A stretch of 64,000 bases of DNA from Escherichia coli (GTDB lineage: Bacteria; Pseudomonadota; Gammaproteobacteria; Enterobacterales; Enterobacteriaceae). The stretch is from assembly GCF_044647545.1 (NCBI RefSeq), contig NZ_CP172818.1, one strand, 5' to 3'. The notes beneath the pieces were generated by a model. The model was not told the DNA's origin and did not search any database. It worked only from the letters and a program-made list of their open reading frames with translations. The stretch's first letter is position 1. Every line of letters begins with the position of its first letter. The position numbers and the translations under genes were made by a program. Below are positions 10,196-32,083 of this stretch, piece by piece.

Positions 10196-10205
10196 GGTAC
10201 GGAGA

Positions 10206-10721: not shown

Positions 10722-10723
10722 TA

Positions 10724-11566: not shown

Positions 11567-11597
11567 TCACGCGATTACACCGCATTGCGGTATCAAC

Positions 11598-11674
11598 GCG
11601 CCCTTAGCTCAGTTGGATAGAGCAACGACCTTCTAAGTCGTGGGCCGCAGGTTCGAATCCTGCAGGGCGCGCCA
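11598..11674 (+). tRNA. argU: tRNA-Arg (anticodon UCU), ending in CCA
   Basis: 77-nt sequence GCGCCCTTAGCTCAGTTGGATAGAGCAACGACCTTCTAAGTCGTGGGCCGCAGGTTCGAATCCTGCAGGGCGCGCCA; cloverleaf-compatible; recognised argU. Confidence 0.95.
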
Positions 11675-11689
11675 TTACAATTCAATCAG

Positions 11690-12853
11690 TTACGCCTTCT
11701 TTATATCCTCCATAATTCCAGAGTGGGACATATTTGGGACATTATCACCAAAAATGTCGTCTATTTTCCTCGCATGCTCTGTCAAATGATTAGGCGCAAG
11801 GTGAGCATACCTACGAACCATTTCTATGGACTCCCATCCGCCCATTTCCTGAAGCACTGATAATGGGACGCCTGACTGAATCAGCCAGCTTGCCCAGGTG
11901 TGTCTGAGGTCATGGAAACGGAAATCTTCAATTCCTGCACGACGACAAGCTGATAGCCATGATGTCTTGCTGTCGATGCGCATCTTCCTGACCGCAGGCG
12001 TTGATGTTCCATCTGCTCGCTTAGCCGCCTTGGTATGTACAAACACCCATTTGTGATGCTTGCCTATTTGATCACGCAACACTTTACAGGCGGTATCGTT
12101 CAGCGCCACACCAATGGCGCGGTTTGATTTGCTCTCTTCTGGATTCACCCAGGCAACTCGTCGCTGCATGTCGATTTGTTGCCATTCCAGATTTATGATG
12201 TTCGACTTTCTCAGACCAGTTGCCAGCGCAAACTTGACGACAGATTTCAGTGGTTCGGGGCACTCATCAATAAGGCGTTTTGCTTCCTCCTTTTCCAGCC
12301 ATCTGACTCGCTTGTTTCTGACCGCTGGTATCTTGATGACAGGCGCTTTTTCCAGCCACTTCCAGTCGCGTTCTGCAGCACGGAGAATGGCCTTTATCAT
12401 GGCAAGATGCTTTGCCTTTGTCTGAGTTGATACTGGCTTTGGTTCATAAACAGGCAGTTCTTTACCTTTCCTGATGGCGGCCTGAACTTTCTGTTTCCAT
12501 ATTTCTTTCGTCTTTCTGTTATGCATTCTGCTTACAGCAGAGTAAATCTTTGCCTCCGAGATATCTTTAAGCCTTATACCCTCAAAATGTTCAAGCCAGA
12601 ACTCAATCCGGCTTTTATCTGAATCGAGAGATTTTTTATCAGCTTTTTCCTCAAGCCATCTTAGGCAGGCCTCTTCAAAAGTGACATCAGGTAAATCCCC
12701 TAGCTTTTCTACTCGCCAGAGTTCTGCTTTTCGCTTGTCGTGCAACTCCTGAGCTTGCCGCTTGTCCTTTGTGCCAAGAGATTCCTTAATTCGTTTCCCG
12801 CCCGGGAGCGAATACGAGGCATACCATATTTCATTTCTGCGGAAGAGTGACAT
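11690..12853 (-). CDS. intD: prophage tyrosine integrase
   Basis: 387-aa ORF 15 bp downstream of the tRNA; C-terminal R..HxxR..Y catalytic region ([13 protein letters not shown]). Confidence 0.9.
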
Positions 12854-12972
12854 TTTCTTTCCTCTGTTATGCCATCACCCGCGCTCACCTGGACAGTATG
12901 CAGCGGAGACTGAAGCGCCGCAATGCAGGCTTGCCGTGTTGTGAGGTACCCGGATATTATCGTGAGGATGCG

Positions 12973-13311
12973 TCATCGCCATTGCTCCCCAAATACAAAA
13001 CCAATTTCAGCCAGTGCCTCGTCCATTTTTTCGATGAACTCCGGCACCATCTCGTCAAAACTCGCCATGTACTTTTCATCCCGCTCAACCACGACATAAT
13101 GCAGTCCTTCACGCTTCATACGCGGGTCATAGTTGGCAAAGTACCAGGCATCTTTTCGTGTCACCCACATGCTGTACTGCACCTGGGCCATGTAAGCCGA
13201 CTTTATGGCCTCGAAACCACCGAGCCGGAACTTCATGAAATCCCGGGAGGTACGAGTATTGCCGGAAGCGCGGGCTGTATCCGGATGCAGAGTCTTATCC
13301 GTGGAAATCAA
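12973..13311 (-). pseudogene. exoD: lambda exonuclease (Exo) C-terminal fragment
   Basis: 112-aa ORF whose sequence ([50 protein letters not shown]...GFVFGEQWR) corresponds to the C-terminal part of lambda Exo only. Confidence 0.7.
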
Positions 13312-13349
13312 ACGCGCACTACTGGCTGGTTACCAACCTGTATCAGAAC

Positions 13350-13562
13350 ATGCGGGCCAATGCGTTGACTGACGCGGAATTACGGCGCAAGGCTGCCGAT
13401 GAACTGTCCTGTATGACCGCACGAATTAACCGTGGTGAGGCTATACCTGAACCAGTAAAACAACTTCCTGTCATGGGCGGTAGACCTCTAAATCGTGCAC
13501 AGGCTCTGGCGAAGATCGCAGAAATCAAAGCTAAGTTTGGGCTGAAAGGAGCAAGGGTATGA
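13350..13562 (+). pseudogene. peaD: lambda replication protein P C-terminal fragment
   Basis: 70-aa ORF ending ...AEIKAKFGLKGARV, matching the end of lambda P; no N-terminal part present. Confidence 0.6.
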
Positions 13563-13716
13563 CGGGCAAAGAGGCAATTATTCATTACCTGGGGACTCAT
13601 AAGAAATTCTGTGCGCAGGACGTTGCCGCGGTAACAGGCGCAACGGTAATCTGATCTTACCCAGCAATAGTGGACACGCGGCTAAGTGAGTAAACTCTCA
13701 GTCAGAGGTGACTCAC

Positions 13717-14016
13717 ATGACAAAAACAGTATCAACCAGTAAAAAACCCCGTAAACAGCATTCGCCTGAATTTCGCAGTGAAGCCCTGAAGCTTGCTGAA
13801 CGCATCGGTGTTACTGCCGCAGCCCGTGAACTCAGCCTGTATGAATCACAACTCTACAACTGGCGCAGTAAACAGCAAAATCAGCAGACGTCTTCTGAAC
13901 GTGAACTGGAGATGTCTACCGAGATTGCACGTCTCAAACGCCAGCTGGCAGAACGGGATGAAGAGCTGGCTATCCTCCAAAAGGCCGCGACATACTTCGC
14001 GAAGCGCCTGAAATGA
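13717..14016 (+). CDS. insE: IS3 OrfA (transposase N-terminal, helix-turn-helix)
   Basis: 99 aa from [15 protein letters not shown]; recognised IS3 OrfA. Confidence 0.88.
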
Positions 14017-14879
14017 AGTATGTCTTTATTGAAAAACATCAGGCTGAGTTCAGCATCAAAGCAATGTGCCGCGTGCTCCGGGTGGCCCGCAGCGGCTGGT
14101 ATACGTGGTGTCAGCGGCGGACAAGGATAAGCACGCGTCAGCAGTTCCGCCAACACTGCGACAGCGTTGTCCTCGCGGCTTTTACCCGGTCAAAACAGCG
14201 TTACGGTGCCCCACGCCTGACGGATGAACTGCGTGCTCAGGGTTACCCCTTTAACGTAAAAACCGTGGCGGCAAGCCTGCGCCGTCAGGGACTGAGGGCA
14301 AAGGCCTCCCGGAAGTTCAGCCCGGTCAGCTACCGCGCACACGGCCTGCCTGTGTCAGAAAATCTGTTGGAGCAGGATTTTTACGCCAGTGGCCCGAACC
14401 AGAAGTGGGCAGGAGACATCACGTACTTACGTACAGATGAAGGCTGGCTGTATCTGGCAGTGGTCATTGACCTGTGGTCACGTGCCGTTATTGGCTGGTC
14501 AATGTCGCCACGCATGACGGCGCAACTGGCCTGCGATGCCCTGCAGATGGCGCTGTGGCGGCGTAAGAGGCCCCGGAACGTTATCGTTCACACGGACCGT
14601 GGAGGCCAGTACTGTTCAGCAGATTATCAGGCGCAACTGAAGCGGCATAATCTGCGTGGAAGTATGAGCGCAAAAGGTTGCTGCTACGATAATGCCTGCG
14701 TGGAAAGCTTCTTTCATTCGCTGAAAGTGGAATGTATCCATGGAGAACACTTTATCAGCCGGGAAATAATGCGGGCAACGGTGTTTAATTATATCGAATG
14801 TGATTACAATCGGTGGCGGCGGCACAGTTGGTGTGGCGGCCTCAGTCCGGAACAATTTGAAAACAAGAACCTCGCTTAG
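14013..14879 (+). CDS. insF: IS3 OrfB transposase (DDE catalytic domain; normally made as an OrfAB fusion by -1 frameshift)
   Basis: 288-aa ORF overlapping insE; recognised IS3 OrfB. Confidence 0.88.
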
Positions 14880-15189
14880 GCCTGTGTCCATATTACGTGG
14901 GTAGGATCAACCAGCATAAATCAGGCTGCGGCTAAAATGGCACGGGCAGGTCTTCTGGCTATCGAAGGTAAGGTCTGGCGAACGGTGTATTACCGGTTTG
15001 CTACCAGAGAAGAACGGGAAGGAAAGGTGAGCACGAATCTGATTTTTAAGGAGTGTCGCCAGAGTGCCGCGATGAAACGGGTATTGAGGGTATATAAAAG
15101 AACATCAATGGGTACACAATGATGAAACAGGTGAGTTGAGTTCAAACTGTAGTACAATTCTCTCCAGTTTGAACAGGAAAGAATATTCT

Positions 15190-15522
15190 ATGAACCCTTA
15201 TATTTATCTTGGTGGTGCAATACTTGCAGAGGTCATTGGTACAACCTTAATGAAGTTTTCAGAAGGTTTTACACGGTTATGGCCATCTGTTGGTACAATT
15301 ATTTGTTATTGTGCATCATTCTGGTTATTAGCTCAGACGCTGGCTTATATTCCTACAGGGATTGCTTATGCTATCTGGTCAGGAGTCGGTATTGTCCTGA
15401 TTAGCTTACTGTCATGGGGACTTTTCGGCCAACGGCTGGACCTGCCAGCCATTATAGGCATGATGTTGATTTGTGCCGGTGTGTTGGTTATTAATTTATT
15501 GTCACGAAGCACACCACATTAA
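15190..15522 (+). CDS. emrE: small multidrug resistance efflux transporter EmrE
   Basis: 110 aa from MNPYIYLGGAILAEVIGTTLMK, four transmembrane helices, conserved Glu in the first helix. Confidence 0.9.
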   Translation: MNPYIYLGGAILAEVIGTTLMKFSEGFTRLWPSVGTIICYCASFWLLAQTLAYIPTGIAYAIWSGVGIVLISLLSWGLFGQRLDLPAIIGMMLICAGVLVINLLSRSTPH

Positions 15523-15553
15523 AAATAATTTGTTTCTAAACGACTAAAATATG

Positions 15554-15586
15554 GAGGCTCTTATATTTATATGAGCCTCGTTTTAT
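15554..15586 (+). terminator. candidate rho-independent terminator after emrE
   Basis: GAGGCTC / GAGCCTC stem with AT-rich loop followed by GTTTTATGCTTTTT. Confidence 0.45.
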
Positions 15587-15778
15587 GCTTTTTGTTAATG
15601 TCTTTATTTTTTTATGTATTCTTTTGTGCTTTCAAGATTATGGCGTAAGAAAATTGCAATACGATTATTGTTGTATATTCAAGATAATGTGACCTTAATT
15701 GTCTTTTTAAATAAAAATTAAACAAAAATTATATCCCACCACTAAGGTTTATAAAAGCATACGTTAGCAGGTGTCACC

Positions 15779-17305
15779 ATGAAAAAAGCCATAGCATATA
15801 TGCGATTTTCATCACCAGGTCAGATGTCTGGCGACTCATTAAACCGACAGAGAAGACTTATTGCTGAATGGTTAAAGGTAAATAGTGATTATTATCTTGA
15901 TACCATAACATATGAAGATTTAGGATTAAGTGCATTCAAAGGAAAGCATGCACAATCAGGAGCTTTTTCGGAATTTTTAGATGCTATAGAGCATGGTTAT
16001 ATATTGCCAGGAACTACATTGTTAGTTGAAAGTCTGGACAGACTTTCAAGAGAAAAAGTCGGTGAAGCGATTGAACGTCTGAAATTGATTTTGAATCACG
16101 GTATTGATGTTATAACTCTTTGCGACAATACAGTCTATAATATTGACTCTTTGAATGAGCCATATTCATTAATAAAAGCCATACTTATAGCACAAAGGGC
16201 AAATGAAGAAAGCGAGATAAAGTCAAGTCGGGTTAAATTATCATGGAAGAAAAAACGGCAGGATGCACTGGAATCAGGTACGATTATGACGGCGTCTTGT
16301 CCGAGATGGCTCTCCTTAGATGACAAAAGAACGGCTTTTGTTCCAGACCCCGACAGGGTGAAAACTATTGAGCTAATTTTTAAACTCAGGATGGAAAGGC
16401 GCTCATTGAATGCAATAGCCAAGTATTTAAATGATCATGCTGTAAAGAATTTCTCAGGAAAAGAAAGTGCATGGGGACCTTCTGTAATTGAAAAATTATT
16501 AGCGAATAAAGCTCTGATAGGTATATGCGTACCTTCATATCGTGCAAGAGGTAAAGGAATAAGTGAAATCGCTGGCTATTATCCCAGAGTCATATCAGAT
16601 GATTTGTTTTACGCTGTACAGGAAATTCGGTTGGCACCTTTTGGTATTAGCAATAGTAGCAAAAATCCTATGTTGATAAATCTACTTCGAACAGTTATGA
16701 AGTGCGAGGCTTGTGGTAATACCATGATTGTTCATGCGGTATCTGGAAGTTTGCATGGCTATTATGTTTGTCCGATGAGAAGACTGCATCGATGTGACAG
16801 GCCATCAATAAAGAGAGATTTGGTTGATTATAATATCATTAATGAGTTGCTTTTTAATTGTAGTAAAATCCAACCAGTTGAAAACAAGAAAGATGCTAAT
16901 GAAACTTTAGAGTTGAAAATTATTGAGCTCCAGATGAAAATTAATAATTTAATTGCTGCATTATCTGTTGCGCCTGAAGTTACCGCTATAGCAGAAAAAA
17001 TCAGAGTATTAGATAAGGAATTACGAAGGGCTTCTGTATCATTAAAAACTTTGAAGAGTAAAGCGGTGAGTTCACTTGGTGATTTTCATGCTATTGACTT
17101 AACCAGTAAAAATGGGCGAGAGCTATGTCGTACACTTGCCTATAAAACATTCGAAAAAATCATAATCAATACAGATAATAAAACCTGTGATATCTATTTT
17201 ATGAATGGCATTGTTTTTAAACACTATCCTTTAATGAAAACAATATCCGCCCAGCAGGCGATAAGTACTCTCAAATATATGGTTGATGGTGAGGTTTATT
17301 TTTGA
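15779..17305 (+). CDS. ybcK: large serine recombinase family protein
   Basis: 508-aa ORF; N-terminal resolvase-like catalytic motif (AYMRFSSPGQ), central recombinase domain, Cys-rich zinc ribbon (CEACGN...CPMRRLHRCD), C-terminal coiled-coil-like region. Confidence 0.85.
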   Translation: MKKAIAYMRFSSPGQMSGDSLNRQRRLIAEWLKVNSDYYLDTITYEDLGLSAFKGKHAQSGAFSEFLDAIEHGYILPGTTLLVESLDRLSREKVGEAIERLKLILNHGIDVITLCDNTVYNIDSLNEPYSLIKAILIAQRANEESEIKSSRVKLSWKKKRQDALESGTIMTASCPRWLSLDDKRTAFVPDPDRVKTIELIFKLRMERRSLNAIAKYLNDHAVKNFSGKESAWGPSVIEKLLANKALIGICVPSYRARGKGISEIAGYYPRVISDDLFYAVQEIRLAPFGISNSSKNPMLINLLRTVMKCEACGNTMIVHAVSGSLHGYYVCPMRRLHRCDRPSIKRDLVDYNIINELLFNCSKIQPVENKKDANETLELKIIELQMKINNLIAALSVAPEVTAIAEKIRVLDKELRRASVSLKTLKSKAVSSLGDFHAIDLTSKNGRELCRTLAYKTFEKIIINTDNKTCDIYFMNGIVFKHYPLMKTISAQQAISTLKYMVDGEVYF

Positions 17306-17499
17306 GTAATAATCTTTTTTACGTCGTGCTATAGTAAGAAAGTGCAAGACAGAATTAATTATCTTTGACGAAACTTAATGGGTAATTACTTTGTTTGCTC
17401 CCACAAGCGAGTTTTGTACGGCTGTATTGGGGTAGTAAATGAGCTATACAATCTTAATCATTTGTTAGGTGAGAACTCTTGGTCGCAGATTCAAATACT

Positions 17500-17549
17500 G
17501 AAAATACGTGACAAATTATTATGAGCAAAATGGTGTATGTCACGTATTT
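17500..17549. repeat. 13-bp perfect inverted repeat pair (AAAATACGTGACA ... TGTCACGTATTTT) separated by 24 bp
   Basis: Seen directly in the ybcK-ybcL intergenic region. Confidence 0.6.
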
Positions 17550-17762
17550 TGAATGGTAGGTTAAAAAATAACACCGACTTTCGTAGGTATTACTAATAAT
17601 AAAGCAGAGTTTTTAGATAGTATCAATGTGCTTTGTGTATATTGTGGCAAATAATTGGGTTGCTGAGGGGTAGAATGTGATTGCTTTTGCATGAACACTT
17701 TATGCATAATGAGATAAAGGAATATCAAATAAAGAACGATAGGTCATAACAAAGAGGTTTTT

Positions 17763-18312
17763 ATGAAAACACTTATCGTTTCAACTGTATTGGCATTCAT
17801 AACATTTTCTGCGCAGGCTGCAGCATTTCAGGTCACTAGTAATGAAATAAAAACAGGAGAGCAACTTACAACGTCTCATGTCTTTCTCGATTTGGGTGTG
17901 AAGGTGGTAATACATCGCCCTCATTAACCTGGTCTGGTGTTCCTGAAGGTACCAAAAGCTTTGCCGTAACTGTATATGATCCAGATGCACCTACAGGCAG
18001 TGGTTGGTGGCATTGGACTGTTGTTAATATTCCAGCAACAGTAACATATTTTCCGTTGATGCAGGGAGACGTGATGGAACAAAACTGCCGACTGGTGCTG
18101 TTCAAGGCCGAAATGATTTTGGCTATGCTGGGTTTGGTGGCGCATGTCCTCCTAAAGGAGATAAACCACATCATTACCAGTTTAAAGTATGGGCTCTAAA
18201 AACTGAAAAGATTCCTGTAGATTCTAACTCCAGCGGAGCGTTAGTTGGTTATATGCTTAATGCTAATAAAATCGCAACCGCTGAGATAACACCAGTTTAT
18301 GAGATAAAGTAG
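17763..18312 (+). pseudogene. ybcL: periplasmic PEBP/UPF0098 family protein with two frame breaks in this assembly
   Basis: Signal peptide MKTLIVSTVLAFITFSAQA; the protein is recovered across three frames with shifts near 17884 (T-run) and 18054 (C-run); corrected length would be 183 aa. Confidence 0.7.
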
Positions 18313-18321
18313 GGTGAGAGT

Positions 18322-19119
18322 ATGCTGGCAAGAGGTAAGACTAACTTAAAGATCGAAGAAATACGGATGCATAAACATCATGAGATTCATAGGGTTAAGC
18401 CTCTTATGCCAGCTTTGTGTCGTATCCGTCAGGGAAAGAAAGTTATCAATTGGGAGACGCATACTTTAACTGTTGATAATAATCAAATAATATTATTTCC
18501 TTGTGGTTATGAATTTTATATTGAGAATTATCCTGAAGCAGGGCTTTATCTTGCAGAAATGCTTTACTTACCCATTGATTTAATTGAGAGTTTCCAAAAA
18601 CTTTATACGGTAACTGATCAAATACGTAACAAAACAAGTTTCTTTTTACCTCAGAATCCTGAGTTAATATATTGTTGGGAGCAACTAAAAACATCTGTTT
18701 CCCGAGGCTTCTCAACTAAAATTCAGGAGCACTTAGCAATGGGCGTTCTACTTTCGTTAGGAGTGAATCATGTTAATCATTTACTTTTATCATATAGTAA
18801 ACAATCATTGATAAGTCGTTGTTATAACCTGCTGCTATCCGAACCCGGCACAAAATGGACAGCAAACAAGGTTGCTCGATATCTCTACATTTCTGTTTCT
18901 ACATTACATCGCCGTCTAGCAAGCGAGGGGGTAAGTTTCCAAAGTATACTGGACGATGTGAGGTTAAATAATGCGTTGTCTGCTATACAAACGACGGTAA
19001 AACCTATAAGCGAGATTGCCAGAGAAAATGGTTATAAGTGTCCTTCTCGTTTTACTGAAAGATTTCATAATCGTTTTAATATAACACCAAGAGAGATAAG
19101 AAAAGCTTCCAGAGAGTAA
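18322..19119 (+). CDS. ybcM: AraC-family transcriptional regulator
   Basis: 265-aa ORF with C-terminal AraC-type helix-turn-helix. Confidence 0.85.
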
Positions 19120-19235
19120 AAGTGTTTTAAGAAGGAGCAATTCTATCGATTTTGATTTGCGATAATCAACTCGCCATAATCATGTCATCGGAGCCTGAAC
19201 AACTCCGGTGACTTCTGCGCTAAACGGGGACGTTT

Positions 19236-19337
19236 ATGCGCACACACAATCCAAACTCTCTTCTCCCTCCACAGATGCAGAAATGCACCTGCGATATATT
19301 GTATCCAGCGTTTGACCTCTGCGGAGGTGAAGCGTGA
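19236..19337 (+). CDS. ylcH: small prophage ORF (33 aa)
   Basis: Short [36 protein letters not shown] ending 4 bp into ybcN; small size, low certainty. Confidence 0.35.
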
Positions 19338-19789
19338 ATCTCCCACAAGATGGCATCAAATTACATCGCGGTAACTTCACCGCTATCGGTCGGCAGATCC
19401 AGCCTTATCTGGAGGAGGGCAAATGCTTTCGCATGGTGCTTAAACCGTGGCGTGAGAAACGCAGTCTTTCCCAGAATGCACTCAGCCACATGTGGTACAG
19501 CGAAATCAGTGAATACCTCATCAGCAGGGGTAAAACGTTCGCTACTCCAGCTTGGGTAAAAGATGCTCTCAAACACACATATCTCGGTTATGAAACCAAA
19601 GACCTGGTTGATGTCGTAACCGGTGATATCACCACTATCCAGTCGTTACGCCATACCTCCGATCTTGATACCGGAGAGATGTATGTCTTCCTGTGTAAGG
19701 TTGAAGCCTGGGCGGTGAATATTGGCTGCCACCTGACTATTCCGCAGAGCTGCGAGTTCCAGCTGCTCCGCGACAAGCAGGAGGCGTAA
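19334..19789 (+). CDS. ybcN: NinB-like prophage protein
   Basis: 151-aa ORF with apparent GTG start; position ahead of ninE/rusA in a lambda nin-like region. Confidence 0.8.
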
Positions 19790-19959
19790 TGGCTACACCG
19801 CTTATTCGTGTCATGAACGGACACATCTACAGAGTACCAGATCGTCGTAAGCGTAAACCGGAGCTGAAGCCTTCCGAAATACCAACACTGCTCGGATATA
19901 CCGCCAGCCTGGTTGATAAAAAATGGTTGCGACTGGCAGCAAGGAGGAATCATGGCTGA
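19789..19959 (+). CDS. ninE: NinE-family prophage protein (56 aa)
   Basis: [26 protein letters not shown]... overlapping ybcN stop; below ORF-track size cutoff. Confidence 0.6.
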   Translation: MATPLIRVMNGHIYRVPDRRKRKPELKPSEIPTLLGYTASLVDKKWLRLAARRNHG

Positions 19960-20242
19960 TTTGAGAAAAGCAGCGCGTAGTCGGGAATGCCAGGTAAGAA
20001 TCCCTGGCGTATGTAATGGCAACCCTGAAACGTCTGTACTGGCACATATCCGGCTGACTGGATTGTGCGGCACCGGTACCAAACCGCCAGACCTGATTGC
20101 CACCATTGCATGTTCTGCCTGCCACGACGAAATCGACCGCCGCACACATTTTGTCGATGCTGCATATGCAAAAGAATGCGCGCTGGAAGGTATGGCGAGA
20201 ACACAGGTTATCTGGCTGAAAGAGGGGGTTATTAAGGCGTGA
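19952..20242 (+). CDS. ybcO: prophage protein YbcO (Cys-rich, 96 aa)
   Basis: 96 aa from [10 protein letters not shown]; conserved nin-region position. Confidence 0.75.
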
Positions 20243-20601
20243 ATACCTACAGCATCACATTACCCTGGCCTCCGAGCAATAATCGCTATTACCGCCATAA
20301 TCGCGGGCGCACGCACGTCAGCGCAGAGGGGCAGGCATACCGCGATAACGTCGCCCGAATCATTAAAAACGCAATGCTGGATATCGGCCTGGCTATGCCT
20401 GTGAAAATCCGCATTGAGTGCCACATGCCGGATCGCCGTCGCCGTGACCTGGATAATCTGCAAAAAGCCGCTTTTGACGCACTCACTAAAGCAGGTTTCT
20501 GGCTGGATGATGCTCAGGTCGTTGATTACCGCGTTGTGAAGATGCCTGTTACCAAAGGTGGGAGGCTGGAACTGACCATCACCGAAATGGGGAATGAATG
20601 A
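20239..20601 (+). CDS. rusA: Holliday junction resolvase RusA
   Basis: 120-aa [21 protein letters not shown]...; recognised RusA. Confidence 0.9.
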
Positions 20602-20738
20602 TGTTTGAGTTTTATATGGCAGAACGTCTTCGCCACCGCTGGGGGCGTCTGCGCTTATATCGTTTCCCCGGTTCTGTTTTGACCGATTACCGAATACTGA
20701 AGAATTACGCCAAAACCCTGACAGGAGCAGGAGTATGA
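20598..20738 (+). CDS. ylcG: small prophage ORF (46 aa)
   Basis: [26 protein letters not shown]... overlapping rusA stop; verified codon by codon. Confidence 0.45.
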
Positions 20739-20823
20739 AGTCAGAGATAACAATCAACTAATACTGTTTCGTTGATTTTTGCTTGTAATTGGCGTTCTGG
20801 TCTGATTTTTGTGGAGTAAGTTG

Positions 20824-21207
20824 ATGCGTGATATTCAGATGGTTCTTGAGCGTTGGGGAGCGTGGGCGGCTAATAATCATGAAGATGTGACCTGGTCGTC
20901 CATTGCCGCCGGTTTTAAGGGATTAATTACTTCAAAAGTAAAATCTCGCCCACAATGTTGTGACGATGACGCGATGATCATTTGCGGGTGCATGGCCCGT
21001 CTGAAAAAGAACAACAGCGATTTGCATGATTTATTGGTGGACTATTATGTCGGCGGCATGACTTTTATGGCGCTTGCACGTAAGCATGGGCGATCTGATT
21101 GTTGGGTTGGCAGGATGCTTCAGAAAGCTGAGGGCGTAGTGGAGGGTATGCTGATGGTGTTGGATCTCCGATTGGAGATGGATGTCGTTGTTAATAACTC
21201 TAATTAA
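20824..21207 (+). CDS. quuD: Q-family late-gene antiterminator
   Basis: 127 aa from [18 protein letters not shown]; immediately upstream of a hairpin-rich regulatory region. Confidence 0.8.
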
Positions 21208-21229
21208 TATGCCAATTGTTTACTAAAAA

Positions 21230-21390
21230 TTATTAAAAATGGGGCGTTGAGACGCCCCCAAAAATAAAGGGTAATATATAACAGAAGGTTTATATAGTTA
21301 GAAGCAAGGTTGTGCTTCTAAAGGAAGTGGCTTGAGGGAGCCACTTATATGTTGGGGAGGCAACGCCTCCCGCAACATATCTTTTTCGTA
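21230..21390 (+). promoter_or_regulatory. late regulatory region downstream of Q (candidate pR'/qut and short-transcript terminator)
   Basis: Several GC hairpins (GGGGCG..CGCCCC; AAGTGGC..GCCACTT; GGGAGGC AAC GCCTCCC followed by ...CTTTTT). Confidence 0.3.
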
Positions 21391-21458
21391 ATCAGATTAG
21401 AACTGGTAAACCAGACCTACAGCAACGATGTCATCAGTGCTTACACCGAGTGCTTTAG

Positions 21459-22653
<1,195 letters not shown>

Positions 22654-23683
22654 TTAGTGAAGTCATTTTTGTCAAGCAGGTTGATTTTGTAATCAACGAA
22701 AGTAGACATATTTTTGTTGAAGTAATAGGTTGCACCTACATCAACATATTTGACTAAGTCCTGATCGCCCCATACTCCAAGATCCTTACCTTTAGATTGC
22801 AGGTAAGCAACGGACGGACGCAGACCGAAATCGAACTGATATTGTGCAACAGCTTCGAAGTTTTGGGCTTTATTAGCAACGAAGTGATCAGCAAATACAG
22901 TCATATTCTGGGTTTCAGAATAGGTAGTGGCCAGGTAAATGTTGTTAGCGTCATATTTCAGACCTGCGGCCCAAACTTCTGCATTTTTACCGGAAGCAAA
23001 TACTTCAGGAAGAACTTTCCCTGCATTAACTTGAGTGTCGGTACGATCAGATTTCGCATAAGTTGCACCGATACCGAATCCTTCGTATTCATAGGTAGCA
23101 GAGAAACCGAAGCCATCACCGTTACCTTCAGTGTAGTTATCGAAATCGCTACGATCGTTTTTGCCTTGGTACTGAATCGCAAAATCAAGACCATCAACCA
23201 GGCCAAGAAATCATAGTTACGGTAGGTTGCAACACCGTTGGTACGACCATTCATGAAGTTGTCAGCGGAAGCCCAGGAATCGCCACCCCATTCAACTAAC
23301 ATATCGGTATAAGCTGCGGCATCATAAGCAACACCGTAGTTACGGCCATAGTCAAATGACCACTCGTTATATTTCAAACCGGCGAAGGTTAAACGGGTTT
23401 TTTCCTGGTTTTCACCTTCGGGCTTGCTGGCGTCGAGGTTGTATTCAAACTGACCAAAACCAGTCAGTTCGCTGGTGATTTGGGTTTCACCTTTGAAGCC
23501 AAGACGGGCATAAGTAGTATCACCATCATCTGCATCATTAGAGGAGAAGTAGTGCTTAGCATTAACTTTCCCGTACAGATCCAGCTTGTTACTGTCTTTA
23601 TTATAAATTTCAGCTGCCTGAGCAGACATCGCCATTAGTACTGATGCAGCTACAGCAGAAATTGCCACTGTTAATTTTTTCAT
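22654..23683 (-). pseudogene. nmpC: OmpC-family outer-membrane porin, truncated at the 3' end by IS5 and carrying an internal single-base frame break near 23205
   Basis: Signal peptide [23 protein letters not shown]; porin sequence reads YRNYDF then shifts frame, then continues in frame to the IS5 junction (last residues EGANKSLI come from IS5). Confidence 0.8.
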
Positions 23684-24258
23684 CGTGAGCCCTTTTTTTG
23701 AACTATTATTAAAAAATGATGTCACTGCGCGATAAATATTCATCTAATCAATGTGATTATTTCAAGATGTAAGTTTTGGTTTCTCGTTTGATTTGTGAAG
23801 TAGATCTCTATTTTTATCTGAACTTTTTTCTATCGAATCCTATTCATGGCTCTTGGCTGAATAAAAATAAATCTATTAGCCAATTTATATTAACGGCTGT
23901 TATTTATAAGTGCTCTATAATTTGAAGGTTCAATTTAAACCGGCTAAAAATAACACTGGAAATTATTTTTTGGTTATTTGTTGAGATTTGCTTATGTATT
24001 TGTAGTGGTGTTTTCAATACTCGGTAGCATTCTCTCAAATATCATTTAGTGGTTTACGTACGTAAAAAATTGGTTATGCTGTTAAGAGTGGTTACTTCGT
24101 CACACAGCTTAAACCCGCCGTCGAGCGGGTTTTTCCATTTTTTGAGTCTCGATATTAGCTGATAACCCAATACCTGAGTTATTCACTGACTCCGAGTCTG
24201 TTACGTTTCGTAGTATTCCCTCAATTTACACCCATCCGTTATTTGCGGAGGTGAGGCT

Positions 24259-24474
24259 ATGAAATCCATGGATAAGTTAACAACGGGCATTGCCTACGGC
24301 ACCTCCGCAGGCAGTGCTGGCTACTGGTTTTTACAGCTGCTCGATAAAGTCACGCCCTCACAGTGGGCAGCAATAGGTGTGCTGGGTAGCTTGGTATTTG
24401 GCCTGCTGACGTACCTGACAAACCTTTATTTCAAGATTAAAGAAGATAAGCGCAAGGCTGCGAGAGGTGAATAA
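24259..24474 (+). CDS. essD: phage holin (71 aa)
   Basis: Two hydrophobic segments and charged C-terminus; first gene of the lysis cassette. Confidence 0.85.
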
Positions 24475-24971
24475 TGCCTCCATCATTACGAAAAGCCGTT
24501 GCTGCTGCTATTGGTGGCGGAGCAATTGCTATAGCATCAGTGTTAATCACTGGCCCAAGTGGTAACGATGGTCTGGAAGGTGTCAGCTACATACCATACA
24601 AAGATATCGTTGGCGTATGGACTGTATGTCACGGGCATACAGGAAAAGACATCATTCCCGGTAAAACGTATACCGAAGCAGAATGCAAAGCCCTCCTGAA
24701 TAAAGACCTTGCCACGGTAGCCAGACAAATTAACCCGTACATCAAAGTCGATATACCGGAAACAACGCGCGGCGCTCTTTACTCGTTCGTCTATAACGTG
24801 GGCGCAGGCAATTTCAGAACATCTACTCTTCTTCGCAAAATAAACCAGGGCGATATCAAGGGCGCATGTGACCAGCTACGTCGCTGGGCATACGCTGGCG
24901 GTAAGCAATGGAAAGGCCTGATGACTCGTCGTGAGATTGAGCGTGAGGTCTGTTTGTGGGGGCAACAATGA
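24474..24971 (+). CDS. rrrD: phage endolysin (lysozyme family)
   Basis: 165-aa ORF overlapping holin stop; N-terminal signal-anchor-like segment. Confidence 0.85.
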
Positions 24972-25342
24972 GCAGAGTCACCGCGATTATCTCCGCTCTG
25001 GTTATCTGCATCATCGTCTGCCTGTCATGGGCTGTTAATCATTACCGTGATAACGCCATCGCCTACAAAGAACAGCGCGATAAAAAAGTCAGTGAGCTGA
25101 AGCAGGCGACCGCCACCATTACTGACATGCAGCAGCGCCAGCGTGATGCTGATGCACTCGATGCTAAATACACGAAGGAGTTAGCTGATGCGAAAGCTGA
25201 AAATGATGCTCTTCGGCGCAAGCTTGATAATGGTGGTCGGGTGCTCGTCAAAGGAAAATGCCCTGTGCCATCCTCAGCCGAAACCTCCAGCGCCTCCGGC
25301 ATGGGCAATGATGCCACCGTCGAACTCAAAGACCGAGAATAA
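24968..25342 (+). CDS. rzpD: Rz-like inner-membrane spanin subunit (reading frame as it stands in this sequence)
   Basis: N-terminal transmembrane segment [21 protein letters not shown], coiled-coil-like region; frame terminates at 25342 while the following Rz-like C-terminal peptide lies in the +1 frame. Confidence 0.6.
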
Positions 25343-25445
25343 AAACTATCCAGTTAGCGACGAATATCTGGACCCAATTATCGCGACCAAAACAGCACTG
25401 AGAACGCTTCAGGAATTCATCAGGACGCAATGTCCTTCGAGATAG
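25188..25445 (+). CDS. rzoD: Rz1-like outer-membrane lipoprotein spanin subunit, +1 frame inside and extending beyond the Rz frame
   Basis: [12 protein letters not shown] lipobox, proline-rich PKPPAPPAW; true C-terminus uncertain. Confidence 0.45.
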
Positions 25446-25602
25446 CGATTATTTTACTCATCATTCCCTTCACATCTGGCTCTGTAGACAGTTCACTTCT
25501 GAAATCCAATAAACATCTCATTCTGATGCTTGATATTGAGCATTTTGCGCGCGGTAAGGGGCTGCGTTGAGATAAGAACCAGTAAAAATAAACCAGGATT
25601 TA

Positions 25603-25625
25603 GCCTCGCATTCGCGGGGCTTTTT
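25603..25625 (+). terminator. candidate rho-independent terminator of the lysis operon
   Basis: GCCTCGC ATTC GCGGGGC hairpin (7-bp stem with one G-U pair) followed by TTTTT. Confidence 0.5.
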
Positions 25626-25709
25626 ATTGCCATTACAAAAGCCACTTCCTACAGAGTGGCTTTGATAATGGTTTATACCCTACACGGGATAACTTAACTG
25701 ATATCCCTT

Positions 25710-25874
25710 TTAAAGGATAAAGGTATTCAAGCCTGACACATCATGCGCTGTATCGTCGCCGTATTCCCGTATTAACAGAGACCGTAGCCCGACGGGGAAC
25801 TCCTTCTGCGCGAGTGTGCGGGAATAATCAAAAACGATGCACACCGGGGTTACCGGGTACACATATTTCATCAT
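25710..25874 (-). CDS. hypothetical small ORF (54 aa)
   Basis: ORF MMKYVYPVTPVCIVFDYSRTLAQKEFPVGL...; no recognisable family; below ORF-track cutoff. Confidence 0.2.
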   Translation of the reverse strand: MMKYVYPVTPVCIVFDYSRTLAQKEFPVGLRSLLIREYGDDTAHDVSGLNTFIL

Positions 25875-25919
25875 GCCAGCGAGTCCGGTTCTGGCACGGA
25901 AGAAACCGGACGTTATGAT

Positions 25920-26330
25920 TTAGTGCGGAAATATTTGTGTAGTGTTCTGAATGTTCTCAGTAAAGAGTAATGAATTATCAAAGGTATAGTAATACCTTTT
26001 GTTTTCGTGGATATTTGTAATCCATCTGAAAACCCCTGCTGTAGCAAGATTTTTCCTGTATTCGTAAAATGATAACTCTCCTGATTTGAATCCTTTTAAG
26101 GTGGCTTCTATAAGGCATTTATTTTTTGAAAATCTTACATTTACAACCTTACCCTGTCCTTTTATTAAAACCGTATTATCGTTTTCAAGAACAAGATGAA
26201 TATTCTCTGTAGCTAAATAGTAAATGTAATGTGAGACATTGTGACGTTTTAGTTCAGAATAAAACCAGTGATAGTTTAAATTATTTCGCACTTTATCGAA
26301 TATTTGTTTAAAAATGGCAACCTGAGCCAT
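25920..26330 (-). CDS. ybcV: prophage protein YbcV (DUF1398-like)
   Basis: 136 aa from [31 protein letters not shown]. Confidence 0.75.
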
Positions 26331-26662
26331 TGTGGTACCTTCCATGTGATATGAGGGGCGTAGTCTGCACGATTATCTAAATTGCTTCAATCTGGTCTGA
26401 TTTTTGAGAATTTAAATAAGCAGATTAGAAGGGAAACGCTGAAATTCATGTTGTTTTCAATAAACAAAGAATGGACGAAAAATCATAAAGACAATACTGC
26501 CAGGACAGGTTAAAAACTATCTTAATACACATTCGATGGTTAGATGTTTAATCATGTATAGAACATCATACCTAAAATACTAAAAGCAAAAGAAACGAAG
26601 GAATCCTCTATAATTAATCTATCAAAGAAGAGAATACGTATCTGACTAAGAGACTAATCAAC

Positions 26663-26896
26663 TCAGCAATCCTCGTATTTAGGGAATACAATACGTCCAG
26701 TGTCACTCTTTTCTTTGTTTGCTTCAGGAGAAACTCTTTTTTCTGAGCACAGTCTCCGGCGGCAGGCTTCAATGACCCAGGCTGAGAAATTCCCGGACCC
26801 TTTTTGATCAAGAGCGATGTTAATTTGTTCAATCATTTGGTTAGGAAAGCGGATGTTGCGGATTGTTGTTCTGCGGGTTCTGTTCTTCGTTGACAT
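26663..26896 (-). CDS. ylcI: small DNA-binding-like prophage protein (YlcI/DUF3950-like)
   Basis: 77-aa ORF MSTKNRTRRTTIRNIRFPNQMIEQINIALDQKGSGNFSAWVIEACRRRL; start codon uncertain. Confidence 0.5.
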   Translation of the reverse strand: MSTKNRTRRTTIRNIRFPNQMIEQINIALDQKGSGNFSAWVIEACRRRLCSEKRVSPEANKEKSDTGRIVFPKYEDC

Positions 26897-27095
26897 GAGG
26901 TTGTCCCGTATTTAGTGTCGCTGATTTGTATTGTCTGAAGTTGTTTTTACGTTAAGTTGATGCAGATCAATTAATATGATACCTGCGTCATAATTGATTA
27001 TTTGACGTGGTTTGATGGCGTAGATGCACGTTGTGACATGCAGATGATAATTATTATCATTTTGCGGGTCCTTTCCGGCGATCCGACAGGTTACG

Positions 27096-27107
27096 GGGCG
27101 GCGACCT
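27096..27107 (+). other. lambda-type cosN cohesive-end sequence GGGCGGCGACCT
   Basis: Exact lambda cohesive-end 12-mer preceded by GATCCGACAGGTTACG; CGTTTCC/GGAAACG repeats (terminase small-subunit binding elements) lie between it and nohD. Confidence 0.8.
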
Positions 27108-27284
27108 CGCGGGTTTTCGCTATTTATGAAAAATTTCCGGTTTAAGGCGTTTCCGTTCTTCTTCGTCATAACTTAATGTTTTTATTTAAAATACCCTCTG
27201 AAAAGAAAGGAAACGACAGGTGCTGAAAGCGAGCTTTTTGGCCTCTGTCGTTTCCTTTCTCTGTTTTTGTCCGTGGAATGAACA

Positions 27285-27830
27285 ATGGAAGTCAACAAAA
27301 AGCAGCTGGCTGACATTTTCGGTGCGAGTATCCGTACCATTCAGAACTGGCAGGAACAGGGAATGCCCGTTCTGCGAGGCGGTGGCAAGGGTAATGAGGT
27401 GCTTTATGACTCTGCCGCCGTCATAAAATGGTATGCCGAAAGGGATGCTGAAATTGAGAACGAAAAGCTGCGCCGGGAGGTTGAAGAACTGCGGCAGGCC
27501 AGCGAGGCAGATCTCCAGCCAGGAACTATTGAGTACGAACGCCATCGACTTACGCGTGCGCAGGCCGACGCACAGGAACTGAAGAATGCCAGAGACTCCG
27601 CTGAAGTGGTGGAAACCGCATTCTGTACTTTCGTGTTGTCGCGGATCGCAGGTGAAATTGCCAGTATTCTCGACGGGCTCCCCCTGTCGGTGCAGCGGCG
27701 TTTTCCGGAACTGGAAAACCGACATGTTGATTTCCTGAAACGGGATATTATCAAAGCCATGAACAAAGCAGCCGCGCTGGATGAACTGATACCGGGGTTG
27801 CTGAGTGAATATATCGAACAGTCAGGTTAA
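27285..27830 (+). CDS. nohD: terminase small subunit (lambda Nu1 homologue)
   Basis: 181-aa [49 protein letters not shown]...; recognised Nu1 sequence. Confidence 0.9.
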
Positions 27831-28548
27831 CAGGCTGCGGCATTTTGTCCGCGCCGGGCTTCGCTCACTGTTCAGGCCGGAGCCACAGACCGCCGTTGAA
27901 TGGGCGGATGCTAATTACTATCTCCCGAAAGAATCCGCATACCAGGAAGGGCGCTGGGAAACACTGCCCTTTCAGCGGGCCATCATGAATGCGATGGGCA
28001 GCGACTACATCCGTGAGGTGAATGTGGTGAAGTCTGCCCGTGTCGGTTATTCCAAAATGCTGCTGGGTGTTTATGCCTACTTTATAGAGCATAAGCAGCG
28101 CAACACCCTTATTCCAGCTGGCTTCGTGGCTGTTTTCAACAGTGATGAGTCATCGTGGCATCTCGTTGAAGATCATCGGGGTAAAACGGTTTATGACGTA
28201 GCGTCAGGGGACGCGTTATTTATTTCTGAACTCGGTCCGTTACCGGAAAATGTTACCTGGTTATCGCCGGAAGGGGAGTTTCAGAAGTGGAACGGTACAG
28301 CCTGGGTGAAAGATGCAGAAGCAGAAAAACTGTTCCGGATTCGGGAGGCGGAAGAAACAAAAAACAGCCTGATGCAGGTAGCCAGTGAGCATATTGCGCC
28401 ACTTCAGGATGCTGTAGATCTGGAAATCGCAACGGAGGAAGAAACCTCATTGCTGGAAGCCTGGAAAAAATATCGGGTGTTGCTGAACCGTGTTGATACA
28501 TCAACTGCACCTGATATTGAGTGGCCTACGAACCCTGTCAGGGAGTAA
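27805..28548 (+). pseudogene. tfaD: fusion of terminase large-subunit N-terminal fragment to a tail-fibre assembly C-terminal fragment
   Basis: N-terminal ~100 aa match lambda gpA start ([28 protein letters not shown]...), C-terminal part matches Tfa (...[28 protein letters not shown]...). Confidence 0.75.
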
Positions 28549-28602
28549 TCATTGGGATTATGCCGCAGCACGTCTTAAGCAAGAACATGCTGCGGTTGGA
28601 TG

Positions 28603-29187
28603 CTATTTTTTTCCTGAAGCGGAAAACATTACTACAGTACCTTGAACCTTGGTTTTAACATTCTCGAAATGCTCTGAGAGTATATGTGTTAAGCCTTCTT
28701 CGGAATCTTTTGTGTTTGAAAAGATGCCTTTCTGATTGTAAATGCGCATCAGTTTTTGACCGAAGCTATTGTGCACAACTCCATCGCCAAGAATTGTGGC
28801 TCCGTATAGAGTTCCATCGTCAGTTAAGGCCTGCGCCGCATTGCGTATTACACAGCTTTTTGTAGATATATTTCCAGGCAGGCAGTGAAGAAGGTAAGAC
28901 ATGGAAATGGAATCAAATTGACCATGTAACGCCGCGGGATAAGGTTCAAAAACATCATGGCTAATTTTATGTTTAATTTTTGATTCCCCAGCCCTTGTAG
29001 ATGCCGCGTTCAGGCTAGCTTCGTTCAAATCCATTAAAGATATCAGACTACTCTCAGGTACGTGAGTAAGGTAAAACCCAGTTCCAACACCAATATCCAG
29101 ATGGTTGTTACCTAAATGTTCCAGAAAGTGTGGAAGAAGGTGTTCCTTTGTAGGACATCCCCATGCAAGCCGATTTGATACTCCCAA
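28603..29187 (-). CDS. ybcY: SAM-dependent methyltransferase-like protein
   Basis: 194-aa ORF with glycine-rich nucleotide-binding motif (LDIGVGTG); may be a truncated gene. Confidence 0.6.
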   Translation of the reverse strand: MGVSNRLAWGCPTKEHLLPHFLEHLGNNHLDIGVGTGFYLTHVPESSLISLMDLNEASLNAASTRAGESKIKHKISHDVFEPYPAALHGQFDSISMSYLLHCLPGNISTKSCVIRNAAQALTDDGTLYGATILGDGVVHNSFGQKLMRIYNQKGIFSNTKDSEEGLTHILSEHFENVKTKVQGTVVMFSASGKK

Positions 29188-29325
29188 AACCCACCAGTCA
29201 TAAAGCTTTAGGGTAAGTGGTGTGTAAATTCTAGCCCCATCATCTGTGTTTTTTTATTAATTTCACCATGTTATAGTTTTATTTGTGAATTAAATCAATT
29301 ATGGCAATGAATTACAAGGGGTTAA

Positions 29326-29586
29326 ATGCTGCCGCAGCATAGCGATATTGAAATAGCCTGGTATGCTTCAATACAGCAGGAGCCGAATGGCTGGAAGACC
29401 GTCACCACACAGTTCTACATCCAGGAATTCAGTGAGTATATTGCGCCACTGCAGGATGCTGTAGATCTGGAAATCGCAACGGAGGAAGAAAACTCGTTGC
29501 TGGAAGCCTGGAAAAAGTATCGGGTGCTGCTAAACCGTGTGGACACTTCCGTAGCACCAGATATCGAGTGGCTTATTCAACCATAA
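29326..29586 (+). pseudogene. tfaX: tail-fibre assembly protein C-terminal fragment
   Basis: 86-aa ORF whose C-terminal 50 aa closely match the C-terminus of the tfaD fusion. Confidence 0.6.
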
Positions 29587-30131
29587 TAAACAGTATGTAT
29601 ATCATAGGTTATTAATTGTGAGTTTTTTCGGTGTGTTATTTGTTTGTTTGATGTTATGCTTTTGCGCCCCAAAAGGTTGTTTAGATGTATTTTATCAATT
29701 GATTTTCAATGTCGTTTAATAAAGAAAAATTAAGCAAGCTGGATGTTGGTTTTTTGTTAATTGAATGGTTCTAATAATGTTTTTTTACTGTTGTTGAATG
29801 TGACTTGATAAGAAATGCAAGTAAAAATGATACTCTTTTTATTTTAAATTCAAACGGTTGACATATATATAGCAAGAGGTTTCAGGTGCGTTGTAGTGAG
29901 TTTATGTTAATAAAAAGTATAGTAAGCGTTGAAAAATGTAACTTTGAAATACGTTAGAATAAAAAACAATATACATATAATAATTTAATCTTAAATGAAA
30001 TTTATTAAAATTTGCAAACTATAATTTTGTGTATAAAAATATAAATGCACATCATCCTGATTATGATTGTGTATTTAATTGGTTGTTATTTGACTGCTAT
30101 CAACTTGTTTTAATTTTATGATAGGTGCAAG

Positions 30132-30881
30132 ATGGATTATGTTTGCTCCGTAGTTTTCATCTGTCAATCATTTGATTTAATTATAAACAGGAGAGTTATC
30201 TCGTTCAAAAAAAATTCATTGTTTATTGTAAGCGACAAAATTAGAAGGGAGTTACCAGTATGCCCCTCTAAACTAAGAATTGTTGATATAGATAAGAAAA
30301 CATGTTTATCCTTTTTTATCGACGTGAATAATGAGCTGCCTGGCAAATTTACTCTTGATAAGAATGGCTATATTGCTGAAGAGGAACCTCCATTATCGCT
30401 TGTTTTTTCTCTGTTTGAAGGGATTAAAATAGCAGACTCACACTCCCTTTGGTTAAAAGAAAGACTATGTATATCCTTACTTGCCATGTTCAAAAAACGC
30501 GAAAGTGTAAATTCATTTATACTAACAAATATAAATACATTTACCTGTAAAATTACTGGAATAATCAGTTTTAATATTGAGCGGCAATGGCATTTAAAAG
30601 ATATTGCGGAATTGATTTATACGAGTGAAAGTTTAATAAAAAAAAGATTAAGGGATGAAGGAACGTCATTTACTGAAATATTGAGAGATACTAGGATGAG
30701 GTATGCAAAAAAACTCATAACTTCAAACTCTTATTCTATCAATGTCGTAGCCCAGAAATGTGGCTATAACAGTACTTCATATTTCATATGTGCATTTAAA
30801 GATTATTATGGTGTCACGCCATCTCATTATTTTGAGAAAATAATCGGCGTCACAGATGGAATAAACAAAACAATTGACTGA
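30132..30881 (+). CDS. appY: AraC-family transcriptional activator AppY
   Basis: 249-aa ORF with C-terminal AraC helix-turn-helix; AT-rich flanks. Confidence 0.9.
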
Positions 30882-31129
30882 TAATGTTTATTACAAGTTG
30901 CCTACATGTTAATTATAATATTATACAGCGTTTTTTTGATGTGATATTCTGGAACCATTAATTTGTAATTGGGTTGCTGTCGCCTATTTTATACATGCTA
31001 TAATTGATGGTTTTCTATGTGATTTAGTTAATAACCTTCTGGGTTTATTTTAAGGGTTAATTGTTACATTGAAATGGCTAGTTATTCCCCGGGGCGATTG
31101 TCACCTCGGGGAAATTTTAGTTGGCGTTC

Positions 31130-32083
31130 TTAAAATGTGTACTTAAGACCAGCAGTAGTGATGAAGTTATAGTTTTCTATGCCTGCACCATTTTTGCTGT
31201 AGTCTGAAGTGTTATCATTGTGATCATAAAGTGAAGTATTACCTTTTTTATTCGTAACCCGATTCCATGCGCCTTCAACATAAACTTTTGCGTTAGGTGT
31301 TACGTAATAACCTGCATTGACTGCAACAGAATAGTAATTTTGGTCTTTGACTTTACTGCGATAAGTGATTCTTTTTCCTGGGTCATAGTGCTCATCGTTA
31401 TCAGATGCTTCCACCCAGCCGCTGTATTTAAATGTGCCACCTAGCTCAAAATCTTCATAACGATAACTTCCAGTCAAGCCAATGTAGGGCATTTTAAAAC
31501 GTTGTTTGTAGCCGATTGCTCTTTCTCCATTCGGGAAGGAGCCGATATCATCTCTGAATCCCTCCTCAGAACTGTAGATATAGGAACCACCTCTGGCTGT
31601 AAAGCTATAACGGCTTTCCTGATATCCGGCCATGAGTCCCAGGCGGTAATTGGGTTCGTTGAGGAGCCAGCCTTTGATATTCAGATCAAATTCGTTGGCA
31701 TAATTGAGTTGTGTATCAGGGTGCCTACTTTCATCTGTCCAGGTTCCGGGGTTACTGGAATCCATCCAGTCCTGATCGACCATATTGCCACCTCGGCTGC
31801 CGAGAGTAGTCCAGCCCGCAGCCCCAATAGATATCTGGGGCATCAAATCCCAATTAATTGCACCTTTAATAATTGCAGCGTTATTGAATTTCCAGTCGAG
31901 TTGACTGACTTTTCGGCCTCCTTCTTCGGCTAGATAAACACGCTCTTTTGTTTTTCCGCTCAGAGTTCCAAGACTAATGTCCGCATTTATGTTGTCAGGA
32001 GTAAACGATAAAGTCTCGGTAGAAGCAAAAGAGCTGATCGCAATAGGGGTTGTCAGGACTATTCCCAGAAGTTTCGCCCGCAT
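31130..32083 (-). CDS. ompT: outer-membrane aspartyl protease OmpT (omptin)
   Basis: 317-aa ORF; recognised omptin sequence. Confidence 0.93.
   Translation of the reverse strand: MRAKLLGIVLTTPIAISSFASTETLSFTPDNINADISLGTLSGKTKERVYLAEEGGRKVSQLDWKFNNAAIIKGAINWDLMPQISIGAAGWTTLGSRGGNMVDQDWMDSSNPGTWTDESRHPDTQLNYANEFDLNIKGWLLNEPNYRLGLMAGYQESRYSFTARGGSYIYSSEEGFRDDIGSFPNGERAIGYKQRFKMPYIGLTGSYRYEDFELGGTFKYSGWVEASDNDEHYDPGKRITYRSKVKDQNYYSVAVNAGYYVTPNAKVYVEGAWNRVTNKKGNTSLYDHNDNTSDYSKNGAGIENYNFITTAGLKYTF

Follow-up and report, generated by a model that had tools for sequence, protein, structure and literature searches.

A probable frame break in an embedded lambda-family spanin pair mimics an overlapped architecture in a defective DLP12-type prophage of Escherichia coli

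Spanins disrupt the outer membrane during lysis. In the embedded arrangement of spanin genes, Rz1 lies wholly inside Rz in the +1 frame. In a stretch of 64,000 nucleotides of the Escherichia coli contig NZ_CP172818.1 (assembly GCF_044647545.1), referred to here as the window, the Rz frame stops early and an Rz1-like frame that starts inside it runs on past its end. Does this locus hold a genuine overlapped spanin pair, or has a frame break fused the tail of Rz onto the Rz1 frame? An earlier note, made from the sequence alone, had put forward both readings. Our analyses support the frame break, whereas the overlapped architecture did not hold up, and most probably the locus as written is a pseudogene pair derived from an embedded lambda-Rz-family / HK620-family pair.

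The lysis cassette of the window comprises four successive + strand ORFs, namely those of the holin, the lysozyme, the Rz frame and the +1-frame lipoprotein. The features of the locus are as follows:

24259..24474, + strand: essD, class II holin gene, 71 aa, intact (ORF; named EssD or holin; annotated essD in syntenic loci)
24474..24971, + strand: rrrD, endolysin (lysozyme) gene, 165 aa, intact (ORF; named lysozyme RrrD)
24968..25342, + strand: Rz (i-spanin) frame, cut to 124 aa (ORF, PHROG 13, and alignment with the 155-aa Rz and the 153-aa RzpD)
24976..25164, + strand: mosaic segment within Rz that differs by SNPs only (14 substitutions and no indels relative to strain FDAARGOS_497)
25175..25180, + strand: Shine-Dalgarno sequence AAGGAG for the Rz1 start (read directly from the sequence)
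25188..25445, + strand: chimeric +1-frame ORF, 85 aa (ORF, profile and pairwise matches)
25312..25401, + strand: open stretch in frame +2 with the displaced Rz1 tail and the native Rz1 stop, TGA 25399-25401 (three-frame translation)
25327..25345, + strand: 19-nt insertion absent from the canonical allele, at which the frame breaks and which holds the new Rz stop TAA 25340-25342 (base-by-base comparison and repair test)
25327..25591, + strand: indel-rich divergent tract with 16 indels and 10 substitutions relative to FDAARGOS_497, between near-identical flanks
25371..25445, + strand: displaced remnant of the Rz C-terminus, now in the Rz1 frame (three-frame translation and pairwise match to Rz)
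25430..25570, + strand: ORF of 46 aa, with a 50-aa homologue in canonical loci, a hypothetical protein overlapping the Rz end (ORF comparison)
25602..25631, + strand: terminator-like hairpin with a T-run, 3' of the lysis cassette (consensus match only)

Both genes upstream of the spanins encode widespread proteins, the exact holin and endolysin sequences each being found on at least 1000 contigs. The Rz frame begins with an ATG at 24968 that overlaps the rrrD stop as ATGA, and it is closed after 124 codons by the TAA at 25340-25342, just where the earlier note had placed its end. The truncated product matched PHROG 13 (Rz-like spanin) with E=2e-58 over residues 1-122 (profile positions 1-121 of 154), its residues 1-120 are 90-96% identical to Rz proteins of 155 aa in an alignment with HK620, 4/1-1 and FDAARGOS_497, and its close homologues bear PF03245. 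By its anchor, its periplasmic coiled coil and its homology (PF03245, PHROG 13), the protein belongs to the lambda Rz i-spanin family. It retains the N-terminal membrane anchor, the first coiled coil and the linker, while the last ~31-34 residues are missing; with profile positions 122-154, the complete distal coiled coil and the C-terminal end with its penultimate Cys are absent. The alignment with Rz homologues and K-12 RzpD and the comparison of lengths that the earlier note had called for gave 155 and 153 aa for the intact proteins, against 124 aa here.

The +1-frame ORF starts with an ATG at 25188, 7 nt after AAGGAG, and ends with TAG at 25443-25445, so that it overlaps the Rz ORF by 155 nt and continues for another 103 nt past the Rz stop. 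Its N-terminus, as read from the sequence, carries a lipoprotein signal with the lipobox VVGC (Cys19), followed by the Pro-rich segment PKPPAPPAW, the attributes of an Rz1 o-spanin of the HK620 family; an ORF of this description reaching 25445 had likewise been noticed before. Three parts can be told apart in its 85 residues: amino acids 1-47 are the Rz1 signal, lipobox and Pro-rich region, 48-61 are new, and 62-85 are an Rz C-terminus. Matches to Rz1 profiles are confined to the first ~50 residues, both for PHROG 3198 (positions 1-51 of 68, E=1.4e-17) and for Pfam PF06085 (model positions 1-29 of 41, E=2e-12), and in place of the native o-spanin C-terminal tail (profile positions ~50-68; canonical tail …LQLLDETFSVSGTELSATKQH) there is other sequence. 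The suspicion that this distal part resembles Rz was confirmed, as residues 62-82 are identical to HK620 Rz residues 133-153 at 16 of 21 positions (pairwise E=1e-9) and tblastn with the tail over 50,697 phage records returned Rz C-termini only. The true end of Rz1 persists in frame +2 as a diverged remnant, …QLSRPKQH*, the canonical end being …ELSATKQH*. No other PHROG spanin family gave a stronger match for either ORF, and NCBIfam, in which no version of any of the proteins had a spanin match, was uninformative. Since each frame carries homology of its own, the pattern formed by Rz and the +1 ORF is no chance ORF.

Intact forms of this pair are common. In HK620, Ayreon, 4/1-1 and FDAARGOS_497, Rz has 155 aa in a single frame, with an Rz1 of 68 aa (MRKLKMML…PPSNSLQLLDETFSVSGTELSATKQH) wholly embedded in its +1 frame. 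The 541-bp locus has full-length matches of ~88-92% identity in ~1,650 complete E. coli genomes (those covering at least 80% of the locus) and in HK620, Ayreon, mEp460, Kapi1 and other phages. Strain FDAARGOS_497 served as the reference for a base-by-base comparison of the lysis locus. A single SNP separates the two sequences in 24232-24975, 14 SNPs and no indels in 24976-25164, and 16 small indels with 10 substitutions in 25327-25591, whereas 25592-26401 shows no differences. In other E. coli, full-length matches to segment 24900-25326 reach at best 97.9% identity.

The tract opens with the 19-nt insertion, CAAAGACCGAGAATAAAAA, which amounts to 18+1 nt; no other indel group departs from a multiple of three. 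The first of the later groups (+1, -2, -10, -1) sums to -12, the second and the third (-1, +1 and +1, -1) to 0 each, and the last (+2, -7, -4, -2, -1) again to -12. Because these sums are all multiples of three, only the 19-nt insertion shifts the frame. Rz, until then in frame 0, continues in +1, and the Rz1 tail (…KQH*), which belongs in +1, continues in +2; 3' of the insertion, one frame stays similar to the Rz C-terminus (YPV…D-II…) and the next stays similar to the Rz1 end (…QLS--KQH*). As written, Rz1 does not lie wholly inside Rz. That arrangement comes back when one base, at any position of 25322-25340 but 25327, is deleted: Rz then has 158 aa, and embedded in its +1 frame is an Rz1 of 70 aa that ends in KQH. 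The Rz repaired by one base matched PHROG 13 over positions 1-152 of 154, gaining 17.5 bits over the truncated form. The window offers no evident template for the 19 inserted nucleotides, with no further copy at up to 3 mismatches and k-mer matches at chance level only.

The embedded 155/68-aa form of the intact homologues, the net +1 shift within 25327-25345, the Rz1 stop stranded in the third frame and the one-base repair argue for a frame break, and neither result that the earlier note had named as refuting was obtained, as the sequence contains no uninterrupted Rz and none of the homologues found has the overlapped layout. We consider it likely that the locus as written is a pseudogene pair. 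The 3' third of the spanin pair lies within the divergent indel-rich tract (25327-25591), and the insertion at the 5' edge of this tract, one base over whole codons, throws everything downstream into +1. The Rz frame then meets the TAA at 25340 and ends at 124 aa, so that its distal coiled coil is lost together with the Cys near the C-terminus, and the Rz1 frame reads the former Rz C-terminal codons and extends to 85 aa, with the true Rz1 tail and its stop left in the third frame. The apparent overlapped architecture would thus be a by-product of the frame break.

The tract extends beyond the spanins into the ORF at 25430-25570, whose N- and C-termini are in frame despite five indels, which sum to -12. 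This 46-aa protein forms a cluster of one member from a single contig; its N-terminus is hydrophobic (IAIILLII), and its canonical homologue of 50 aa overlaps the Rz end in ~1,600 genomes. Such conservation of a tiny ORF suggests that it may be a real but uncharacterised gene of the lysis cassette.

The locus lies in a defective, decaying lambdoid prophage of the DLP12 type. The left end of this prophage is given by a tRNA-Arg(TCT) gene at 11598-11674 (argU), adjoining intD, and the segments 8800-25215 and 26734-32000 are collinear with K-12-type DLP12 at 97-98.5% identity, 8800-25215 reaching 97.2% against K-12 DLP12 with the IS3 and IS5 insertions included. Together with the argU site, intD and the K-12-like gene order, the loss of structural genes identifies the element, and the window and K-12 DLP12 have in common IS3, IS5, a truncated terminase and tail-fibre fragments. 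Further pseudogenes of the same prophage are ybcL, with two separate 1-nt deletions at 17885 and 18054 relative to K-12-type DLP12, and an nmpC-like porin gene (23204-23425), interrupted by IS5 (21605-22621) and carrying further indels of -1, -3, +1 and -7. A segment of ~300 bp in the ybcV/ylcI interval (26402-26700) is absent in FDAARGOS_497 and in E. coli BS-01 and gave no alignment to the K-12-type locus, while its right flank is 100% identical to both strains. Among Rfam matches above the gathering score, an IS009 RNA (28307-28505) falls inside the prophage remnant, and a sok antitoxin RNA (53997-54153, adjoining hokE) and the ES036 sRNA (55098-55139) lie further along the window.

The chromosomal backbone is nearly that of FDAARGOS_497, with no mismatches and one gap over the 32.3 kb from envY to entF (window 31693-64000). 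This sole difference is a 1-nt deletion at 43428, at the end of cusC (42049-43437), which abolishes the stop (CAATAA to CAAAAT) and lengthens the ORF by 2 aa. FDAARGOS_497 also has a ~10.4-kb ISAs1/RHS/VgrG island between nfrB and cusS that is missing from the window (39769-39784), where the flanks are identical.

The divergent tract 25327-25591 was found in one assembly only. Neither megablast nor blastn gave a match to 25327-25365 in 5,426 E. coli genomes, the tract occurred in none of 50,697 phage records, and 26-mers and 22-mers from the patch had no matches in IMG/VR viral, GTDB-genome and metagenome collections. The 38-aa peptide of the patch, searched by tblastn against phages, found a match to its last 21 aa only. 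At the protein level, the best match of the repaired 158-aa Rz among 5.8 billion proteins was 86% identical, and the best 12 all had the canonical C-terminus; a search with the C-terminal 43-mer yielded no candidates, from an index apparently incomplete for short queries. Exact look-ups in ~15 billion proteins retrieved none of the 85-aa ORF, the 124-aa Rz, the repaired Rz or the repaired Rz1, and a single contig each for the 128-aa Rz ORF with a GTG start and for the 46-aa ORF. No relative with the 124-aa/85-aa layout was found in the 5,426 E. coli genomes, the 50,697 phage records or the protein collection, nor was an intact or donor allele carrying the tract in any collection searched.

One other genome has a comparable allele. 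At the same DLP12 site, E. coli BS-01 (NZ_CP172816.1) carries an indel-rich tract in the 3' part of Rz/Rz1 (about 559833-560105 of that contig) that starts from the same nucleotide (after GTCGAACT) and has 35 derived alignment columns in common with the window. Its sequence is longer and different, its Rz is a pseudogene in the NCBI pipeline annotation, and its Rz1 ends early (45 aa as annotated), whereas the frame of the window runs on. The BS-01 tract was found in no other complete E. coli genome, and a 23-mer common to both tracts had no matches in viral, GTDB-genome and metagenome collections. In BS-01, cusA, cusB, cusS, ompT, appY and intD are all annotated as frameshifted, so its assembly may be noisy.

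Decay of the tract in situ was rejected, as 32 kb of identity to FDAARGOS_497 stands against ~40 differences within 615 bp. Given this identical backbone, the ~615-bp block 24976-25591 was either imported or is an artefact, and did not decay in place; we infer that the tract came by recombination from an unsampled lambdoid allele. In favour of a natural, formerly coding allele are the compensated indels, the 35 columns common with BS-01, and the motif DEYL, which the repaired Rz has where lambda-type Rz has RDYF. The compensation of indels downstream of the insertion suggests that the allele may have been functional until recently, in which case one wrongly called base would be enough to hide an intact pair.

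The only serious rival to the frame break, itself unlikely, is a sequencing or assembly artefact, consisting of an extra base in 25327-25340 or of the whole 265-bp tract, behind which the real pair would be an intact embedded one of 158/70 aa or 155/68 aa. That the tract and both its ORFs are singletons, that the differences are mostly indels (16 against 10 substitutions in 265 bp) and that one deleted base restores both genes all speak for such an error, as does the state of BS-01, the one other genome with a tract of this kind, in which many housekeeping genes are frameshifted, suggestive of a noisy assembly. The assembly of the window, however, is generally clean, as judged by the 0 mismatches and 1 gap in 32.3 kb of backbone, and 19 nt of new sequence with no template in the window would be atypical of a consensus error. 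Moreover, only one group of coding indels out of five breaks the triplet count, and across the remaining four two ORFs stay in frame, an outcome with a probability of ~0.045 under random error (the grouping being post hoc), and the window and BS-01 have the 35 derived columns in common although their backbones are ~2% apart. Were the artefact nevertheless true, the intact embedded pair would be equally ordinary.

A genuine, functional overlapped pair, in which a 124-aa i-spanin would work with an 85-aa o-spanin that carries the former i-spanin C-terminal helix, is far less probable. On coordinates alone the layout is overlapped, with position 25188 inside 24968-25342 and the ORF end at 25445; each of the two open ORFs has a plausible start (in the ATGA shared with rrrD for Rz, and 7 nt after AAGGAG for Rz1), overlapped architectures occur in other spanin families, and it has been suggested that one architecture may give rise to another through an indel or premature stop in the i-spanin (PMC6139136). 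Conservation of this layout was nonetheless absent in the relatives searched, no homologue having it, and Kongari et al. report no spanin family that mixes embedded with overlapped or separated members (PMC6139136). The i-spanin would also lose a region that lambda Rz needs as far as residue 152, the original end of Rz1 lies unused with its stop in the third frame, as after a recent shift and not in an adapted layout, and further genes are broken in the defective prophage that carries the pair. That a working pair is caught in transition from embedded to overlapped through a single frameshift, its o-spanin capturing the i-spanin C-terminal helix, seems to us more doubtful still; if true, it would be the first family mixing embedded with overlapped members and a direct view of the interconversion of architectures (cf. 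PMC6139136). Programmed ribosomal frameshifting, by which a +1 shift near 25330-25340 would yield a 158-aa Rz from the sequence as written, is the least credible of these explanations. The two halves of Rz do lie in frames 0 and +1, with the shift site directly before a stop codon, but neither a slippery nor a hungry-codon +1 motif could be recognised in CUC AAA GAC CGA GAA UAA, the homologues, more than 1,600 of them, do without recoding, and Rz1 would still be without its native tail. As no motif was seen and the homologues need none, this explanation was rejected.

For the pseudogene pair that we favour, the consequences can be judged by analogy with lambda, whose C-termini differ in sequence from those of the HK620 type. 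In lambda Rz, lysis-defective nonsense mutations occur throughout the periplasmic domain (Cahill et al., PMC5295617), and site-directed stops as late as residues 151 and 152 of 153 still give a defect (PMC5295617); in lambda Rz1, W46X is defective and truncation to residue 55 is tolerated (PMC5295617). By this standard we infer that an Rz without its last ~31 residues would be non-functional, and so, probably, would an Rz1 with native sequence up to residue 47 only. The pair as written should not support disruption of the outer membrane, while the holin and endolysin are intact, and, were the cassette ever expressed, holin and endolysin would be expected to act while the outer membrane stays undisrupted. 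For a prophage devoid of structural genes, such a loss of spanins has no evident cost, and cryptic prophages that lose the spanin and keep the holin and endolysin are frequent among decaying prophages, which gives the case little biological weight. Its interest lies in annotation, as a single-base shift in an embedded pair damages both genes and mimics the overlapped class, so that spanin architecture is not callable from ORF coordinates alone. The assemblies of both the window and BS-01 merit a check against reads.

Compared with known systems, the likeness to the overlapped spanins of the T5, Jersey and DFL12phi1 families (PMC6139136) is one of ORF coordinates alone, in that the o-spanin starts inside the i-spanin and ends beyond it. 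No sequence relationship of these families to the window was found; the layout of the window arises from a frameshift in an embedded-class family, and its o-spanin ORF beyond the i-spanin stop consists of i-spanin sequence and not of an o-spanin tail. With lambda Rz/Rz1 the window has the i-spanin family in common. K-12 RzpD (153 aa) is near-identical to the window Rz over the N-terminal ~83 aa and is lambda-type from residue ~84 (…RDDVAAGRRRLHIKAVC…YINEQCR), with bor following, whereas the window has an HK620-type distal part and no bor. The closest system is that of HK620, whose Rz belongs to the lambda Rz i-spanin family and whose Rz1 heads its own o-spanin family, both in the embedded class (Kongari et al. 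2018, PMC6139136). Pairs of this type, among them those in DLP12-site prophages of the ~1,650 complete E. coli genomes, agree with the window in the cassette order (holin, endolysin, Rz/Rz1, small ORF), in the start of Rz1 with its Shine-Dalgarno sequence and in the C-terminal motif TALRTLQE(Y/F)IRTQC; the first ~120 residues of the window Rz are 90-96% identical to theirs, and the first 47 residues of 4/1-1 Rz1 are identical to those of the window's Rz1. The HK620 type is embedded with 155/68 aa, whereas the window has the 19-nt insertion and 15 small indels in 25327-25591, an Rz of 124 aa and an Rz1 frame of 85 aa. The feature in the window is an already known system, a lambda-family Rz / HK620-family Rz1 spanin, in disrupted form.
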